Below are positions 39,831-58,414 of a stretch of 64,000 nucleotides of DNA, piece after piece. The DNA comes from a phage. Position 1 is the stretch's first letter. Every line of letters starts with the position of its first letter. Under the pieces are notes generated by a model. The model was not told the DNA's origin. It made no database searches and worked only from the letters and a program-made list of their open reading frames with translations. The stretch lies in the sequence record NC_135731.1. The stretch is one strand, 5' to 3'. The position numbers and the translations under genes are program-made.

Positions 39831-40046
39831 ATGAAGATAGAAATATTTGGTGGAGCTGACAACACTCGTGGCCTGATTTACCTTGAATTCGATGAATCAT
39901 ACCTGCCAGAGGTGTTAAATATAGACTCTGTTGCTGAGGCTTTGGGAGTAAACCCTAAAGAACTTCACTCTTGTGCTGAGATTGATGGTTGGGAGGAGAC
40001 CATGAACATCGATTTTAGTGAAGTAGGGGATGAACCACTGGACTGA
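39831..40046 (+). CDS. small acidic protein, MKIEI paralog family
   Basis: MKIEIFGG start; last + strand gene before non-coding hub. Confidence 0.5.
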   Translation: MKIEIFGGADNTRGLIYLEFDESYLPEVLNIDSVAEALGVNPKELHSCAEIDGWEETMNIDFSEVGDEPLD

Positions 40047-40395
40047 CACACAATTAGCTGCCTGGCTAAAGTGCTGGAGCACCTATAGCACATCTTTCAA
40101 CTAAATTTCCTACCACCACAATCACTTACCTCCCACACATGACTGTTTGCTTGTTTAGTGAGCAGTCATGCCTTGACATTCTTGTCTATCCTGATAAAAT
40201 TAAGTTCTTCTCTTTTCTTTTACCGAGTAATTCGGGTTTTCTGTTCTCTTCGGTTTGAAGGGGTATGGAGATACACCTGAGTGAACAGGGTGAACAACCG
40301 AACCATTGGCTATGGCATTAGCATGGCGAAGCGGACGGGTGACGAAAGAGGGGCCGGAGGACACTAGTCACTGCCATATGATATATGGGTGATAA

Positions 40396-40958
40396 CCTGA
40401 AGAGTCTGAATAAGTGTTTAAGTACCAGTCAGAGGAAAAGGTGAATGGTAGCCGAAGGGGGAGGGGGGTTTCTTGTATCTTTAATTTGTATATTATGCAT
40501 ACACTTGTAAACCAATCTCATCTGAATCTGTTTACCACACAAAGTGGATTGAGACAAATATTACCTATTAAACCTGAATTATTTATAGAAAATACCACAA
40601 CACCACTTAAGTCTTTGATTTTACACATAAATCCTACAGATATTCACCCTCCATATTTAACATACTTGTAACATATCCCATACTCTACCTGTCTGATCAA
40701 TTTCCCCAACCACATCCCCATATTTTCCCTTCCTGTACTACCCCTGCCCCGCCGGGAGTCCCGTCATATCTGGCTTTCCAGCAAATATCACACCCACAAA
40801 TATCATTGCCTGAAGAGGGTTTCATCCCATAATACATGCCTTACCTGAAGAGCGCTTCATATACCCCGTAAATTTTTTAATTGACCCCCCTCCCCGCCGC
40901 CGGAGAGGTTGGCTTTTCCCACACAGACCTGAAGAGTCAGCCAGAAATATCTGAAGAG
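40396..40958. repeat. five dispersed YCTGAAGAG direct repeats
   Basis: Copies at 40396, 40809, 40844, 40928, 40950 in non-coding DNA. Confidence 0.6.
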
Positions 40959-41240
40959 GGTCCAGTTCTACCCTGTCAGGAGCCGGTAGCGACTGGAGTG
41001 CTGCCAGGCGGACGAAATGGGAATACTTCTCATTCTTATAACAATTCTCAAATATCGAGGCAGTGAGGCAAATTAATAGGTTAGGCCGTTCACACAGTGG
41101 CACAACATTTGCAACCTATCTTGTGGGAGTGAATGAGAATACCTATCATTGTGAGAATAGTTATCATTACGGGCAATTTAACATAATACCCATTATGCGC
41201 ACCACTGGCGATACATACAGGGATTGATAACATGAGTTAC

Positions 41241-42102
41241 TGTTTACACACATAACAATTATATTTCTTACTATTTGTGTGGGATATAGTTAGCAGCCGA
41301 TAGATTAGATATTGACCTGCGGACTTCTGACCATCTAGACGTCTAAACGCCCACACAACAAGGCTTATACATACATCGCTGAATGTAAACAGGGCCGCAA
41401 AAATGCTACCATACAAGCTTGTAAATTTTTCATGCAGCACTTGACAAAGAGGAGAAAAACTTGTCTGACACAATATGACTTAATTGCCACAACATGACAC
41501 TTTTGCACACCTGATTGTTTGCATATCTAATAGTTTACATGGATAACTGTTCACATACTTATCATTTACATGATTGACTGTTTACACAGAGATGATAAGC
41601 CATGCCATTCGTTTGCATGATAACAATTAACCAGTTTACAATTAACAAGTTAATAATCTTTCGCTGGCTATGCCAGGTGACTAGGTCACCCCTTCAGGTG
41701 TTTCTATGACATAATATAAAAGCAGGGCAACTATTAGCAGATCTATAGTTGCCTTGCTTGTCATGTCATGATTAACTAAATACAAGGCAACTATGATCTG
41801 ATTAATAGTTTGCAGACAAACTATCACGGGGGTGATGGTTACTGCTTTTATATTATGTCGCGACTCCGTCGCGCCATGCCATTCGTTTGCATAGTTGCCT
41901 TATTGTTACGAATAAAACAATTGCATTGTTAATGATTTCTTATCTTTCTCTTAGTCATCTAATGATTCCAGTCAGTATAGTAATGTACAGTAAACATTAG
42001 ACGACTAAAGATTTCTCTGTTTATTATAACTTACCGTTACAATTTCGGACTGTTTACCAAGAATGTTGACACATAAGCTGATTTATGTTATGCAGTTTAC
42101 AC
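41241..42102. repeat. iteron cluster, at least 8 copies of GTTTACA-type motif
   Basis: Copies at 41241, 41534, 41548, 41565, 41580, 41633, 42051, 42095; plus duplicated CCATGCCATTCGTTTGCAT at 41590 and 41864. Confidence 0.6.
41656..41839. repeat. nested palindrome / cruciform-capable region
   Basis: 18-bp perfect inverted repeat GACATAATATAAAAGCAG (41688-41705 and 41822-41839) enclosing palindrome GGCAACTAT...ATAGTTGCC (41706-41733); GGTGAC-TAG-GTCACC at 41656. Confidence 0.65.
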
Positions 42103-42517
42103 GAATAATTATTTTATGCAGGTATTGACTATTCCGTTATTCCATGGTTGGAATAAATACTTAGCAGACTATAGAATGGTGAGCGTACGTAAATTCTGAG
42201 ATCTGGCGGCTATAGTTATACTCGATTTTTCACGTAGAACACGCTTTTGTGAGTGTGTAAGTGTATGACTTATAAAGATTTTTAGTTGTTGACAAGATAT
42301 TGAAGATGTGCATCAGGTTAAATTTTGTGCAATAGCGGCATTACGTGCAATCTTGAGAGAGAAAACGGGTAAAAATGGCCCTGCTACCACACAATGAAAA
42401 ATTATGCAATAGTTATTTTACATGTATGTTTGTACAGTGTGTGGGATTGATGGCTAGTCAATTATTCCACTTGCCAGGCTGGGCCGTTTGTGGTAGGAGA
42501 AATACAGACAAAAAGAA

Positions 42518-42537
42518 AGGGGCCTTTTAAAGCCCCT
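42518..42537 (-). terminator. Rho-independent terminator for minus-strand block
   Basis: AGGGGC...GCCCCT hairpin followed on minus strand by TTCTTTTTGTC. Confidence 0.55.
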
Positions 42538-42555
42538 GATAGTTTAGTTAAGAAA

Positions 42556-42975
42556 TTATAATGATTCGTATATTTCATAGATTCGATTTGCCAGGTCGTT
42601 ACGGTAGCGGAATTTTTCCTCACGTTTGATCATCAGATCTTTAAAGCCATATTCTTTAAGCACTTCATTAACTTTATGGCGGCATACCTTCATATTATCC
42701 TGTGCGTCACCAATAAACCTGTTGCTATGGTGCATGGCTTTAATTTCTTCTTCCAGGACCAGGGCAACTATGCGGACCGGATCAAGCTGATAGGCGGTAA
42801 CATCAATGCGGCATTGTAAACGGCTTTTTACGTCTGCCACCGGATATACTGCAACCTCTTCCCCGTCAACATTGACAATAATTAGTTTACCATCGATTTC
42901 GAATCCTTTCGCCGCCGGACCGTGACAAAAAGCGTTATCAAAGCTATATGCCGGATTATTAGATTTAATGTTCAT
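42556..42975 (-). CDS. hypothetical protein (139 aa)
   Basis: ORF with GAGG RBS; sigma70-type promoter upstream. Confidence 0.55.
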   Translation of the reverse strand: MNIKSNNPAYSFDNAFCHGPAAKGFEIDGKLIIVNVDGEEVAVYPVADVKSRLQCRIDVTAYQLDPVRIVALVLEEEIKAMHHSNRFIGDAQDNMKVCRHKVNEVLKEYGFKDLMIKREEKFRYRNDLANRIYEIYESL

Positions 42976-43717: not shown

Positions 43718-43825
43718 AGTGTTTTCCTCTCTTCTGGTTGTTGTGTGGGCACCTTTGCCCCTTCAAGATAAATGTTACCCCACCCCCCTGGCAGATGTCA
43801 ACGGTTTTTATAGTTCTTATATGAC

Positions 43826-43906
43826 AGGCAGGCCCGGTGATTGTCTCCCCCTGTTCCCAAGTGCCGCCCGTTTAATAAGAATAGCAAAAGGGGCCGAACA
43901 AGTCAA
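43826..43906 (-). promoter_or_regulatory. promoter plus conserved GC-rich hairpin leader (copy A)
   Basis: TTGACT-17 nt-TATTCT (43878-43906) followed by GGGAGACAATCACCGGGCCTGCC core (43826-43852); homologous to copies at 52847 and 52983. Confidence 0.5.
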
Positions 43907-45538: not shown

Positions 45539-45772
45539 TCAACTATTTTCAAAAAATTTTTCTGCTGTGATATTCTTCCCGGTAGGGTTCGCTACTTTCA
45601 AAATTCTATCATGCACCGGACGCCCGAAAGAATAAGATCCGTATACAGTAAACCAATAATCACCGTCAGGCTGTACTATTACCGCCGCATATGGTACGCC
45701 TTTCTCGTTATTGCTAACAAAATAGATCACATTGCCATTAATAGCCTCGGTGCGTTTAATTTGTTCCATCAT
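45539..45772 (-). CDS. hypothetical protein (77 aa)
   Basis: ORF with AGAGAGG RBS. Confidence 0.45.
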   Translation of the reverse strand: MMEQIKRTEAINGNVIYFVSNNEKGVPYAAVIVQPDGDYWFTVYGSYSFGRPVHDRILKVANPTGKNITAEKFFENS

Positions 45773-52360: not shown

Positions 52361-52558
52361 TTATTTTTTATTAAACCAGTGGTTGATCTGGCCTTTTGTC
52401 AGGGCGCAACGATTAAGCTGTTGCCGGGTATAGCTCTGACCACGACGGAATTTATAAAGGCCTTGCCCGTTGTTGATGGTTACATCCACCCGGCAAATCA
52501 CTTGATCCGTGACCACCTGGCGAGTGTTGCGACGTACTTTGATTCCGTAGGCGTTCAT
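52361..52558 (-). CDS. hypothetical basic protein (65 aa)
   Basis: ORF with AGAGGA RBS; minus-strand TTGACA-17 nt-TATTCT promoter upstream. Confidence 0.45.
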   Translation of the reverse strand: MNAYGIKVRRNTRQVVTDQVICRVDVTINNGQGLYKFRRGQSYTRQQLNRCALTKGQINHWFNKK

Positions 52559-52802
52559 GATTTTTTATCCTCTTTGTTAATTAGTGCGGTGTTGTTCACC
52601 TTGCGATAATAAGAATAACAAGAACTGCCCGAGCTGTCAACCATTATGTAAAATTATTTTTTGGGTAGAATTCTCCAGCCGCCACCCCCTGCCAGGTTTG
52701 CAAGCTTTCACTCTCCCACCTGGTCAGTTAGGTCCTGCTAGGGCTGGCCCCGCCAGGTTGCAGCGGTTGACGCACTATGTTAGAAAAATTTTTTGAAAAG
52801 TG

Positions 52803-52925
52803 TTGACAACGGCCCCACCAGGTGGCACAATATACATATCGAAAGGACGGCAGGCACCGGTGACGGGGGAGACAACCACCGGGGATGGGCGCTGCATAAA
52901 ATGAGAACGGTTATCATTATCATTT
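52803..52925 (+). promoter_or_regulatory. promoter plus conserved GC-rich hairpin element (copy C), possible small RNA
   Basis: TTGACA with CCACCAGGTGG palindrome, then GGCAGGCACCGGTGACGGGGGAGACAACCACCGGGG core; no + strand ORF follows. Confidence 0.4.
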
Positions 52926-52946
52926 AAAAATTTATGCAAAAAGTCC

Positions 52947-53040
52947 TTGCTTTCTTTGTCCTGTGTGATACTATAATAACAAGCCGGGGCAGTAGGGGCC
53001 GGGAGACAATCACCGGGCCTGCCCGTTATTCTGCAAACGA
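52947..53040 (+). promoter_or_regulatory. TATAAT box plus conserved GC-rich hairpin element (copy B), possible small RNA
   Basis: TATAAT at 52973; core GGGGCAGTAGGGGCCGGGAGACAATCACCGGGCCTGCCC then GTTATTCTGC. Confidence 0.4.
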
Positions 53041-53180
53041 GAATGATTATCATTCAAAATTCTAAATGAGAACTCCTCGCATTTAATAAATTTAATTAGC
53101 ATGCTAATTACCCTCCGTAACAATTTCCTATAAAACAGTATCCCATAAAATATTCCCATATAGAAATTTTAAAAATCCAT

Positions 53181-53557
53181 TTCTGAAAACGAAAAATCGA
53201 TTTCGTCCCCAAAAATTTTAGGTCGAGAGCCGGAACGATTTCCAGAAAATCCGATTCAGAAAACGAAAAACAAATCGAGTACTGAGAAATTTATCGAGAA
53301 AAATTTTCAGAAAATTCAATCTTTGAAACGAAAAACAGATCGAGTACCTGGAAAGCTGCACCGCAACTTCAAGATAGTGGTTAGATTGTTACCATAGAAG
53401 GTCAAGGGTAAGTGGAGGGAGTTATAGTAGAAGGATGTGAGTATGTGCAGGAAATCTGTAATGGTAGTCTGGAATATGGTGCAAACGATAGGATGAGTTG
53501 TTCAGCTCATCGTGTCTACCCTGAAAAATCCATTTTAGTTTTCGATCCGTTTTCTGA
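53181..53557. repeat. iteron array (3 direct and 1 inverted copy) in 1.1 kb non-coding region
   Basis: TTCnGAAAACGAAAAAnnnATCGA at 53181, 53255, 53322 and inverted at 53539. Confidence 0.6.
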
Positions 53558-53660
53558 TTTTCTAAGAATTTTAAAATATCTGTCCTGGTGAAATATCAAA
53601 AAGGAGGAAATCCATTTTAGAAATCCTCCTTATACTTGGTATGTCAGAAATTTTCAAGTA

Positions 53661-53990
53661 TCAGCTATCTTTATTTTTAGGTTTATACATGCGGAGAGGT
53701 ATAGTCTTTGTAACATTCCACTTCCTCAACCCTTCCCAGCTCCAATTGTGGGCGTGGTATCCGGTTATGCATGCACTGCTAGAGTGATCGTAAGCATAAG
53801 AGAAAGCTAAGCGCACCAGGTGAGGCCAGTCCTTCCACGGCTGTGGCCCGTAAGCCTTTCTCCAACACCGACACAAACTAAATGTCTCAAGAATAGGCAG
53901 AATAACAAATCCATACACTATCACCAGAATGGTCAGTGCAATGATCGTCAGGAATACATACCCTGCAGTTGAAATGATGATCTCCGTCAT
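53661..53990 (-). CDS. membrane protein (109 aa)
   Basis: N-terminal hydrophobic segments. Confidence 0.5.
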   Translation of the reverse strand: MTEIIISTAGYVFLTIIALTILVIVYGFVILPILETFSLCRCWRKAYGPQPWKDWPHLVRLAFSYAYDHSSSACITGYHAHNWSWEGLRKWNVTKTIPLRMYKPKNKDS

Positions 53991-57187: not shown

Positions 57188-58414
57188 TTAGAAGGGGATG
57201 TCATCATCAAAGGCGTACTGTGCTGGATTCTGATCCATCGGGTCGTCTTCCCCATCATTTACAGGAGGAGCGTCTACAGTGTTTTGCTGTGGAGCTGCTT
57301 CCTGTTTGGCAGCCTGAGGTTCTTGATGGTCAGTTGACCCAGCACCGTTCTTGATCCAATCGTACAACGGCTCAGCCAGATTAGTCAACACATCTTTTGC
57401 TTCTGCAGTAATTGCCGCTGCAAAATCATCAACTTTCGTTTTCTTGTCAATACGGCGACAAGCGTTCAACACCGCATTACCGACACTGGCACCTACTTCA
57501 TCTTCAGTTCGGTTGGTGGCTTGAGCATACTCTTTCTTAAGCTCAATGGTGACTACGTGCAGTGCTTTAGCCACACCTAGTGGGTCGTCTACCTTAAAAC
57601 CGCGATCCAGGATGATTTGCAACGCATTGATGCTATGCCCCGTCTCCACACCAATAGGGTCGTAAGAGGATTTACGCTTGCCACCAGAGCCTTGAGTGCC
57701 GTTCTCTGCCTTAGGTGGGTAGGCTTTGAAACCACTGATAATGTTTCCGGTGTCTTTGTCAACAATGGCTGCAACACGACCACCTACCACCAGGTCTTTA
57801 AGCTGCTCATCAGTGACAACCATAGCACCTTCGCCAATCTTGTGGTCATTAACAGTAACCACGTTGCCAACAATCTGAGTCACATCGCCATAGATGCGTA
57901 AAACGTCCTGATTGGCATTCTGCTGAGGTTTCTGCTTCTGGCCTTGTGATTGTGCACCTTGTTGCTGTTTTTGCTGCTGAGTCGCTGCTGGAGCCTCTCC
58001 TGCACCCAGCTTAACCATCTTAGCCAGTGAGCCTTTGTAATAGGTCTTACCGTTATGCTCGTTTGCCTTCAAAGGGATATTTACGATCCATCCTGGCGTT
58101 ACGGTTTCCCACTTGTCATCAATCTTAACAGAGACAGAGTCTTGATGACCAGGTTTAAGCAGCTTATCACCCATACTGATCCAGACTTCTTCACCGCCTT
58201 GGAGCAGGTTATCAGAGGAGTCCAGTTCAGAAATCAGCAAAGAGATGGTGTGGCTGGATTCAATTTTCTTACCTTGCCACACGGTGGTTTTAATACCTGT
58301 TGCAGGATCAGCTCCTTTAATAGGTTTGATGCTAACACGCTTGATCATACCGTGAGCCAGTAAGACAGTTTCACGCGGATTCATCGGGTTAGCAAATTGT
58401 TGAATAACGCTCAT
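57188..58414 (-). CDS. ssb: Single-stranded DNA-binding protein-like (C-terminal DDDIPF tip)
   Basis: C-terminus ends DDDIPF exactly like bacterial SSB; Gln-rich low-complexity linker; 408 aa. Confidence 0.55.
   Translation of the reverse strand: MSVIQQFANPMNPRETVLLAHGMIKRVSIKPIKGADPATGIKTTVWQGKKIESSHTISLLISELDSSDNLLQGGEEVWISMGDKLLKPGHQDSVSVKIDDKWETVTPGWIVNIPLKANEHNGKTYYKGSLAKMVKLGAGEAPAATQQQKQQQGAQSQGQKQKPQQNANQDVLRIYGDVTQIVGNVVTVNDHKIGEGAMVVTDEQLKDLVVGGRVAAIVDKDTGNIISGFKAYPPKAENGTQGSGGKRKSSYDPIGVETGHSINALQIILDRGFKVDDPLGVAKALHVVTIELKKEYAQATNRTEDEVGASVGNAVLNACRRIDKKTKVDDFAAAITAEAKDVLTNLAEPLYDWIKNGAGSTDHQEPQAAKQEAAPQQNTVDAPPVNDGEDDPMDQNPAQYAFDDDIPF

Follow-up and report, generated by a model that had tools for sequence, protein, structure and literature searches.

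A conserved, essential non-coding island with a three-unit repeat array in rV5-like phages

A noncoding island of ~1.1 kb in an rV5-like phage is established by the analyses described here as a conserved and essential locus that has an array of three repeat units as its core. The island was studied in a 64,000-nt stretch of phage DNA (sequence record NC_135731.1), called the window below; all coordinates are window positions, and the strand shown is the plus strand. It lies between the minus-strand genes 52361-52558 and 53661-53990, with the locus itself measuring ~0.9 kb, is surrounded by a block of minus-strand early genes, and carries plus-strand sigma70 promoters that are oriented against its neighbors. 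The island sequence has 100% identity to that of Escherichia phage phiWec196 (LC739542), an rV5-like coliphage of the genus Vequintavirus. An earlier note on this DNA had viewed the repeats as a phased binding array for an initiator or regulator. Our preferred, although tentative, interpretation is that the island is an essential cis-acting module of the origin type, which might most likely function as a transcription-activated replication origin.

The array comprises a single repeat family with three direct copies of 57 nt, which are spaced 74 and 65 bp from unit to unit and share 61-75% identity with the reference copy in a repeat search of the window:

53159-53215, plus strand: repeat unit R1, which contains AAATCCATTTC and the dyad ACGAAA..TTTCGT, 95-99% identical among eight relatives
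53233-53289, plus strand: repeat unit R2, the reference copy, recovered by the repeat search and by a core-pattern search
53298-53354, plus strand: repeat unit R3, whose core is partly degenerate in rV5-type relatives, with AGATCGAGTAC retained

The core GAAAACGAAAAANNNATCGA occurs once per unit (at 53185, 53259, and 53324). A motif search over the whole sequence, which the earlier note had suggested as a check, bears the repeats out: with up to three mismatches allowed, the core has five matches in the 64 kb compared to 0.22 expected, a number reached in none of 100 shuffled sequences. The two remaining matches are three-mismatch sites elsewhere in the window. The three units are real and non-random. 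Where the note had described three direct copies of ~22 bp lying ~70 bp apart, the number of copies and their shared core hold up, but the units are 57 nt long. The inverted copy that had been reported at 53539 is also present, as a partial unit (53539-53563) that is complementary to parts of R2; 53548-53557 complements 53256-53265 at 10 of 10 positions, and 53553-53563 is 91% complementary to 53244-53254. A further repeated motif, AAATCCATTTTAG, is found exactly at 53526 and 53608 and with two mismatches at 53173, although the copy at 53608 turns out to be the loop of the terminator of the upstream operon. The 11-mer AAATCCATTTT is repeated in this island and is also present in homologous islands from four further genera, with ~0.04 occurrences expected per island. 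The surrounding DNA is as AT-rich as had been claimed, with a G+C content (GC) of 0.25-0.40 across the array stretch. An AT-rich region of the unwinding type adjoins the repeats, since GC is 0.25-0.34 over 53080-53320 and the density of A4+ tracts reaches its window-wide peak at 53120-53350 (10, compared to a mean of 1.3 with a standard deviation of 1.2).

One alternative is that the repeats are a functionless chance feature of an AT-rich spacer. Short A-rich words do recur easily in such DNA, and the 13-mer AAATCCATTTTAG shows no window-wide enrichment at two mismatches (six found compared to 3.5 expected). However, the shuffle controls, a degree of conservation above that of the coding neighbors, the presence of three units in seven genera, and the intolerance of the island to insertions together refute this explanation.

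Matches to the 1.4 kb around the repeat array were found in 121 phage records. The array is present in all 116 matching Vequintavirus records and in six further genera, and so the absence of the repeats from close relatives, by which the earlier note would have judged its proposal refuted, does not occur. In an alignment of eight genomes spanning the Vequintavirus clades, the promoter and hairpin modules described below and units R1 and R2 are 95-99% identical, and the right arm of the island is 95-97% identical. These values exceed those of the flanking genes (0.82-0.98 identity). Judged by this alignment, the island is under purifying selection at the nucleotide level. Comparison of the island with E. 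coli genomes gave no similarity, and the sole match among plasmids was the 137.5-kb record CP057073.1, which is itself a Vequintavirus genome. This 'E. coli plasmid' is probably a mislabeled or contaminant record, as probably are 16 records titled 'Campylobacter phage' that are 92-95% identical to the E. coli phage of the window.

Database records annotate the island inconsistently, with small open reading frames (ORFs) on one or the other strand, or with nothing. The earlier note had stated that the repeats lie in DNA with no ORF; mechanical ORFs of 47-59 amino acids (aa) do exist in the array stretch, but they carry no coding signature. Rates of nonsynonymous and synonymous change (pN and pS) were compared among the eight genomes for minus-strand frames equivalent to three genes that the BASEL annotators call in the phage Bas54:

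53218-53364, 53108-53212, and 52780-53053, minus strand: equivalents of bas54_0100, bas54_0101, and bas54_0102, pN/pS 0.63-0.77, pS 0.05-0.12
53661-53990, minus strand: flanking gene, pN/pS 0.13, pS 0.31

In six of the eight relatives, one of the called ORFs has no start codon where its start is annotated, and a second is interrupted by a stop in FV3. Near-neutral pN/pS in combination with low pS and inconsistent starts indicates that the constraint is on nucleotide sequence rather than on protein. No conserved plus-strand ORF is present downstream of the island promoters, and a basic frame of 72 aa was rejected as a gene because it has no start codon and is interrupted by a stop in both the window and FV3. 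Protein coding on either strand is thus ruled out by the lack of conserved ORFs and by near-neutral pN/pS with low pS.

Evidence that the island is needed comes from saturating Himar1 mutagenesis of Bas54 (MaxBurger, MZ501093), a close relative that shares 91.5% identity with the window in the island region. The TA-site values below are those of Extended Data Table 8 of the HIDEN-SEQ preprint (doi 10.1101/2025.11.20.689424), in which neighboring genes have mean counts of ~150-600:

53661-53990: bas54_0099, 18 of 21 TA sites hit, mean 220, Non-essential
53218-53364: bas54_0100, 1 of 3 TA sites hit, mean 5, NA (too few TA sites)
53108-53212: bas54_0101, 0 of 11 TA sites hit, mean 0, Essential
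52780-53053: bas54_0102, 5 of 15 TA sites hit, mean 12.7, Strong fitness defect
gene absent from the window: bas54_0103, 12 of 14 TA sites hit, mean 152, Intermediate
52361-52558: bas54_0104, 13 of 13 TA sites hit, mean 564, Non-essential

All 11 unhit TA sites of bas54_0101 map to 53110-53171, and bas54_0100 to bas54_0102 together tile 52780-53364 of the window. The authors argue against general polar effects (doi 10.1101/2025.11.20.689424). There bas54_0101 and bas54_0102 are listed as protein coding and are not discussed, whereas the same DNA behaves here as noncoding. Insertion intolerance together with the failed coding test therefore indicates that the noncoding island itself is indispensable. 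Neither of these 'essential genes of unknown function' is likely to be a real gene.

Along the plus strand, the other elements of the island are arranged in the following order, with units R1 to R3 located between the AT-rich stretch and the variable spacer:

52782-52831, plus strand: promoter P1, an UP-element-like AGAAAAATTTTTTGAAAA (52782-52799) followed by TTGACA-17-CACAAT with a TG, from the promoter scan
52849-52896, plus strand: hairpin A, with the conserved loop word GGGAGACAACCACCGGG, conservation 96-97%
52900-52918, no strand: palindromic box O1 (AATGAGAACGGTTATCATT), from the box-pattern search
52947-52977, plus strand: promoter P2, TTGCTT-16-TGaTACTAT/TATAAT, read from the sequence and invariant in relatives
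52986-53024, plus strand: hairpin B, with the loop GGGAGACAATCACC; together with box O2 the only part that blastn detects in other genera, at 75-88% identity
53036-53084, no strand: palindromic boxes O2 (53036-53054) and O3 (53064-53084), 29 bp apart, also in GAP31, KNP2, and ESCO13
53093-53110, no strand: perfect 18-bp palindrome TAATTAGCATGCTAATTA, whose arms are conserved and whose center varies among relatives
53108-53172, no strand: AT-rich stretch, GC 0.25-0.28, transposon-intolerant in Bas54
53355-53520, plus strand: variable spacer of 166 nt, G-rich and C-poor on the plus strand, pairwise identity 0.64-0.81 in the eight genomes
53523-53597, no strand: right arm, conserved, with AAATCCATTTTAG (53526-53538), the inverted partial unit (53539-53563), and AAATATC words (53573-53580 and 53590-53597)
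53594-53631, minus strand: rho-independent terminator of the upstream operon, stem AAGGAGGA/TCCTCCTT of 8 bp and loop AAATCCATTTTAG, then TTTTT

Promoter P1 is nearly invariant in the eight Vequintaviruses and has homologs in other genera, and its UP-like word also precedes a bona fide early minus-strand promoter, at 45546-45563. P2 is positionally homologous to the P2 promoters detected by the scan in GAP31, KNP2, and Hena1. A weak third promoter, P3, may lie within 53108-53172, where TAAAAT is found at 53146. The loop word of hairpin A, GGGAGACAACCACCGGG, has three copies in the window compared to 0.24 expected. The third copy of the hairpin-loop word, GGGAGACAATCACCGGGCCTGCC, is located at 43790-43900 on the minus strand, between two minus-strand promoters and co-directional with the genes. 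Its position near promoters there as well makes the promoter-proximal hairpin a recurring module, possibly a leader, an antitermination element, or a small RNA. A segment of ~200 bp that is present in most relatives is missing from the window (at 52697/52698) and from LL12; in the relatives it encodes a small minus-strand gene (rV5 gp192 / bas54_0103) and its own promoter region.

The palindromic boxes have a 9-1-9 consensus, AATGAGAAT-N-ATTCTCATT, that is closely similar to the E. coli Fur box. There are six matches to the box pattern in the window compared to 0.08 expected, and all are inside two noncoding islands: 52900-52918, 53036-53054, and 53064-53084 in the repeat island (island 2), and 41016-41034, 41132-41150, and 41152-41168 in a second one (island 1). 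By eye, TGAGAATGATTATCA agrees at 13 of 14 specified positions with the Fur consensus GATAATGATAATCATTATC, or 7-1-7 TGATAATnATTATCA. The phage box consensus is its own palindrome, in a register shifted relative to that of the Fur box.

In other genera, blastn detects a piece of 60-95 nt (the hairpin B loop plus box O2), which belongs to homologous noncoding islands of 0.8-0.9 kb that are always located within a block of opposite-strand genes. They are found in Seunavirus (GAP31, 4MG, SSE121, PVP-SE1, EspYZU15, and KE23), Mydovirus (KNP2 and Mydo), Avunavirus (Av-05), Henunavirus (Hena1 and pEp_SNUABM_01), and Certrevirus (phiTE), and also in Phapecoctavirus ESCO13, a member of another subfamily. 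The order of elements is common to these genera, and each island has exactly three tandem units. In the six genera with this unit type, the units are 57-64 nt long at a spacing of 63-78 bp; the spacings in ESCO13 are 90 and 48 bp. Unit sequences are genus-specific, such that copies within a genome are more alike than copies from different genera. On the plus strand the array is A-rich in Vequinta-, Seuna-, Mydo-, and Henunavirus, and the ESCO13 array is T-rich on the strand where the others are A-rich. According to these comparisons, the architecture has been retained in at least seven genera, since before the rV5-like genera diverged. A scan of IMG/VR for the three-core pattern returned only two rV5-like contigs and chance matches, and a scan for the box pattern was swamped by unrelated sites that look like Fur boxes.

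The individual elements of these islands can be followed as well. P2 is followed by a hairpin with the loop GAGACAAnCACC and by one to four boxes of the 9-1-9 type at an exact spacing of 29 bp (four in ESCO13). P3 in Seuna-, Mydo-, and Avunaviruses has conserved hexamers and a diverged spacer. The units are followed by a variable stretch, an inverted partial unit, and then two to five AAATATC words, which are placed as in the window. Each Seuna-, Mydo-, or Avunavirus unit holds a short dyad, CGWTTT..AAAWCG; the unit dyads are paired in 87.5% of cells compared to 30-65% in shifted controls, and three pairs have changed on both sides. The 11-mer AAATCCATTTT is found in Vequinta-, Henuna-, Seuna-, and Avunavirus in either orientation, and this difference in orientation among genera fits recognition at the DNA level. 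After P1 there is an RNA of ~90 nt (GCCACCCCACGGCGAAAAGGCGGGGCTAAC...GGTGGATCGCCGGTAG; L035:1318-1405, L036:1328-1415, L037:1320-1404, L038:1317-1404, L039:1330-1408, and others among the homologous loci) that is almost invariant in 12 genomes of six genera, with one covarying pair (GC/AU, 6:6) and no Rfam match. This RNA is absent from the Vequintavirus window, where the second hairpin takes its place.

Three further observations concern the surroundings of these elements. Five genera other than Vequintavirus have a direct repeat, GTAAA-N5-GTAAA, just 5' of the P2 -35 hexamer (L035:1418-1436, with homologous positions in L036, L037, L038, and L166), and this repeat agrees with the CpxR consensus. 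In SSE121, PVP-SE1, and Hena1, genes for HNH homing endonucleases have inserted where the island ends on the right (L161:1210-1797, L162:1210-1797, and L039:2068-2634), and the insertion divides the AAATATC word cluster in SSE121 and PVP-SE1. Immediately 5' of P1, other genera have a small plus-strand ORF (L035:1069-1260, L036:853-1284, L037:1010-1276, and L166:285-548) for a DUF7170 protein or a member of a GWQGGT(V/I)HQVA..TGL family, which looks like a helix-turn-helix protein and has no Vequintavirus counterpart.

Several of these features lead us to favor an origin. Promoters with no ORF to serve are directed into the DNA with the densest A-tracts of the 64 kb, and palindromic boxes and repeats flank that DNA in a manner that recalls the origins of lambda, T7, and T4. 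The units and the orientation-independent AAATCCATTTT resemble protein-binding DNA that co-evolves with a phage factor. Furthermore, the phage has a T7-type polymerase, as PolA-family polymerase ORFs are present in the window, and the boxes tie island 2 to the other insertion-free island. In the mechanism we propose, P1 and P2 (and P3 in other genera), which are strong promoters of the host type, oppose the early genes, and serve no ORF, would send transcription into ~200 bp of A/T-rich DNA laden with A-tracts. The 9-1-9 boxes at 29-bp spacing and the three units of 57-64 bp would bind one or more phage-specific factors, which would account for the way unit sequence co-varies within each genus. 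Transcription, factor binding, or both would then open the AT-rich DNA, and the opened DNA might act as an entry point or primer for a T7-type phage replisome. We infer protein binding, DNA unwinding, and origin activity at the island.

Known phage origins provide useful parallels. The primary origin of T7 has tandem promoters (phi1.1A/1.1B) followed by an AT-rich region, T4 oriF and oriG each combine a promoter with a downstream unwinding element, and the lambda origin is activated from PR. By analogy with the T7 and T4 examples, the ORF-less tandem promoters of the island might fire into AT-rich DNA to the same end. The phage of the window would also share with T7 its type of PolA and, according to the rV5 genome paper, a primase-helicase of the gp4 type, which is known for these phages from that paper alone (PMC3606486). 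Unlike in the T7 and T4 origins, the island promoters are of the host sigma70 type, and the AT-rich part consists of three long units plus palindromic boxes. Other origins are built on iterons: in lambda, four dyad-symmetric 19-bp repeats that bind O are located beside an AT-rich region, and T4 oriE and iteron plasmids are likewise iteron origins. The island resembles these in that direct repeats with internal dyads and A-tracts adjoin very AT-rich DNA, and in that unit sequence co-varies within a lineage, as expected of co-evolution with a cognate binding protein.

Several observations weigh against an origin at this site. The array does not have the iteron format of at least three direct repeats of ~17-22 bp in helical phase, since its units (57-64 bp, spaced 63-78 bp) greatly exceed classical iterons in both length and spacing, and no initiator gene adjoins it. 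Thus the phased binding array of the earlier note survives as a selected, functional, noncoding element, but not as helically phased iterons of ~22 bp. Only the 19-bp boxes at 29-bp spacing come near the iteron format, and by analogy these may be better iteron counterparts than the repeats singled out in that note. Neither Pfam nor PHROG assigns a function to the flanking proteins, which vary from genus to genus. The island has no linked initiator-like gene, and no Rep-like gene is near it among the window ORFs. In addition, P3 immediately precedes unit 1 in Seuna- and Mydoviruses, an arrangement that fits an RNA product too, and the compensatory changes in the unit dyads fit an RNA product equally well. 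A positive GC skew of the spacer is, by eye, limited to Vequintavirus. A literature search for origin or transcript maps of rV5-like phages returned only the rV5 skew analysis and the HIDEN-SEQ preprint, with no replication data. The locus itself is undescribed in the rV5 genome paper (PMC3606486), the PhiTE paper (PMC3475682), and the HIDEN-SEQ preprint (doi 10.1101/2025.11.20.689424).

There is also a competing site. Island 1 (40000-42556) is a noncoding, insertion-free stretch of ~2.5 kb where plus- and minus-strand gene blocks converge, and it coincides with the maximum of cumulative GC skew. It contains many repeat families, DnaA-box-like GTTTACACA words, and the three 9-1-9 boxes like those of island 2. 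It corresponds to the rV5 'non-coding' region 104013-106618 (PMC3606486) and to the insertion-free intergenic region of ~2 kb between bas54_0134 and bas54_0135 in the HIDEN-SEQ text (doi 10.1101/2025.11.20.689424). As an origin candidate, island 1 is no weaker than the repeat island, a further point against the latter.

Some related ideas were rejected. A role for R-loops or G-skew was set aside because the skew is conserved within Vequintavirus only, and one for a Dam/GATC cluster because GATC is over-represented genome-wide and absent from Henunavirus units. The flanking proteins have no informative domain that would make them initiators, and the mapped-origin region of ICP1 has no comparable gap. 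A minus-strand gene at 57188-58414, 3.5 kb from the island toward the DNA polymerase gene, encodes a 408-aa protein (phrog_4477) with no Pfam or PDB match. It matches by position bas54_0087, which is essential in the transposon data (8 of 57 TA sites hit), and its product is a candidate replication factor.

Since the array is downstream of conserved plus-strand sigma70 promoters, it is probably transcribed. This raises the main, although rather unlikely, alternative, in which the array would make up the core of an essential noncoding RNA (ncRNA) that acts in trans, ~200-250 nt long, on the plus strand, and built from three similar A-rich modules that each have a small hairpin. Such an RNA would arise from P3 or from P2 read-through, and by analogy with ToxI and the pseudo-ToxI RNA of PhiTE might titrate, as a decoy or sponge, an RNA-binding protein of the host, a ribonuclease, or a defense toxin. 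Its appeal comes from the conserved promoters immediately upstream, from P3 hexamers that are kept while their spacer has diverged, and from the other structured plus-strand RNAs encoded in the island (hairpins A and B, and the 90-nt RNA1 of other genera). The dyads vary between units yet remain complementary, with compensatory changes, the plus strand is A-rich in the four genera named above, and the insertion data fit equally well. However, the array has no Rfam family even at permissive thresholds: the Rfam 15 covariance models gave no match at gathering score in the window, only chance-level matches at E <= 5 over 52500-53750, and none at E <= 0.1 in five homologous loci. Scans of the window, GAP31, KNP2, and Hena1 gave no plus-strand terminator after the array, and P3 is weak or unrecognizable in Vequintavirus. 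Two of the three dyads have AU-only stems and spacers of 2 nt and would thus fold poorly as RNA hairpins, and the plus-strand alignment fold of 53160-53360 is not significant (z = -1.9). The T-rich ESCO13 array on the same strand and the opposite orientations of AAATCCATTTT among genera also speak against an RNA. The idea of a CsrA sponge was rejected, as there are only three to six GGA motifs per genome and these are not conserved.

A precedent for a repeat RNA exists in the related phage PhiTE, which uses one against ToxIN (PMC3475682). Like ToxI and pseudo-ToxI, the island is a tandem-repeat noncoding locus of an rV5-like phage that is 3' of a promoter. Unlike ToxI, its units are 57-76 nt rather than 36 nt, have no sequence similarity to it, and have no adjacent toxin gene. 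The pseudo-ToxI repeats are elsewhere in PhiTE (at 106.7 kb, with the island at ~39 kb), which rules out that the two are the same locus (PMC3475682), and every genus keeps the island array at three copies, with no expansion. Membership in the ToxI family of type III antitoxins (34-45-nt repeats, a terminator, and an endoribonuclease toxin) was likewise rejected given units of 57-76 nt, no downstream ORF or terminator, and no Rfam match. A broader version, improbable to a similar degree, is that the whole island is an operon of essential phage ncRNAs, with two or three promoter-proximal structured RNAs plus the three-module A-rich RNA disabling a host factor or defense. In that case bas54_0101 and bas54_0102 would be RNA genes, of a kind undescribed in lytic phages.

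Yet another possible role for the island is that of a transcriptional control region and insulator between two early operons, with the repeats and boxes serving as arrays of operators for a phage regulator of the temporal switch. The terminator, an untranslated C-rich (rut-like) minus-strand stretch, and convergent plus-strand promoters would restrain read-through or silence the upstream genes. The minus-strand terminator at 53594-53631 is validated, with an alignment fold z of -3.55, a compensatory G-C to A-U change in the stem of slur12, and another change in other relatives that is compatible, as G-U, on the minus strand only. Within the spacer, the eight-genome alignment has indels of 1 and 2 nt, which are not multiples of 3, and GC skew is +0.27 to +0.40 in all eight relatives despite sequence drift; RNA from the minus strand of 53355-53520 is accordingly rich in C and poor in G in every one. 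An alignment fold found no conserved RNA structure in the spacer on either strand. The promoter scan places the next minus-strand promoter at 52640-52612, the plus-strand promoters face the upstream operon, and the box-like operators are common to island 1. Nevertheless, Bas54 can do without any single one of the genes that lie up to several kb away on either side, and thus simple loss of their regulation should not kill unless derepression is toxic. The transposon carries its own transcription signals and is still tolerated in neighboring genes, and a control region leaves exactly three long units in seven genera unexplained. We therefore consider this role distinctly unlikely.

Packaging sites (pac) are also essential cis elements and can consist of repeated short words, as in phage P1. 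The island might be the pac site of headful-packaging, circularly permuted phages, and three records (LC739538, PP681140, and MG065655) do end within it, at ~53047, just after unit 3, and at ~52843. Both rV5 (PMC3606486) and PhiTE (PMC3475682) have been reported as circularly permuted. However, chance alone would place the ends of about one or two of ~260 records in an island of 0.9 kb, and those of the three records differ in position. The terminase is distant (0.7-3.1 kb in Bas54, where the island is at 81-82 kb), and promoters and structured RNAs are unexpected for a pac site, which makes packaging a very improbable function.

The tentatively preferred origin thus concerns a locus that databases record as hypothetical proteins or not at all, and that is best classed among origin or control regions with repeat arrays. 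It also has a genuine chance of being a less familiar kind of locus, namely an operon of essential phage ncRNAs. The rV5-like phages are a large group with wide use in phage therapy and biocontrol. To our knowledge, no replication origin or essential cis element has been defined so far in these phages (Vequintavirinae and Stephanstirmvirinae). The present analysis links a delimited, deeply conserved noncoding architecture to transposon data that show it to be indispensable, and the island is a site that genome engineers should leave intact. If its function proves to be RNA-based, it would represent a new class of essential phage ncRNA.

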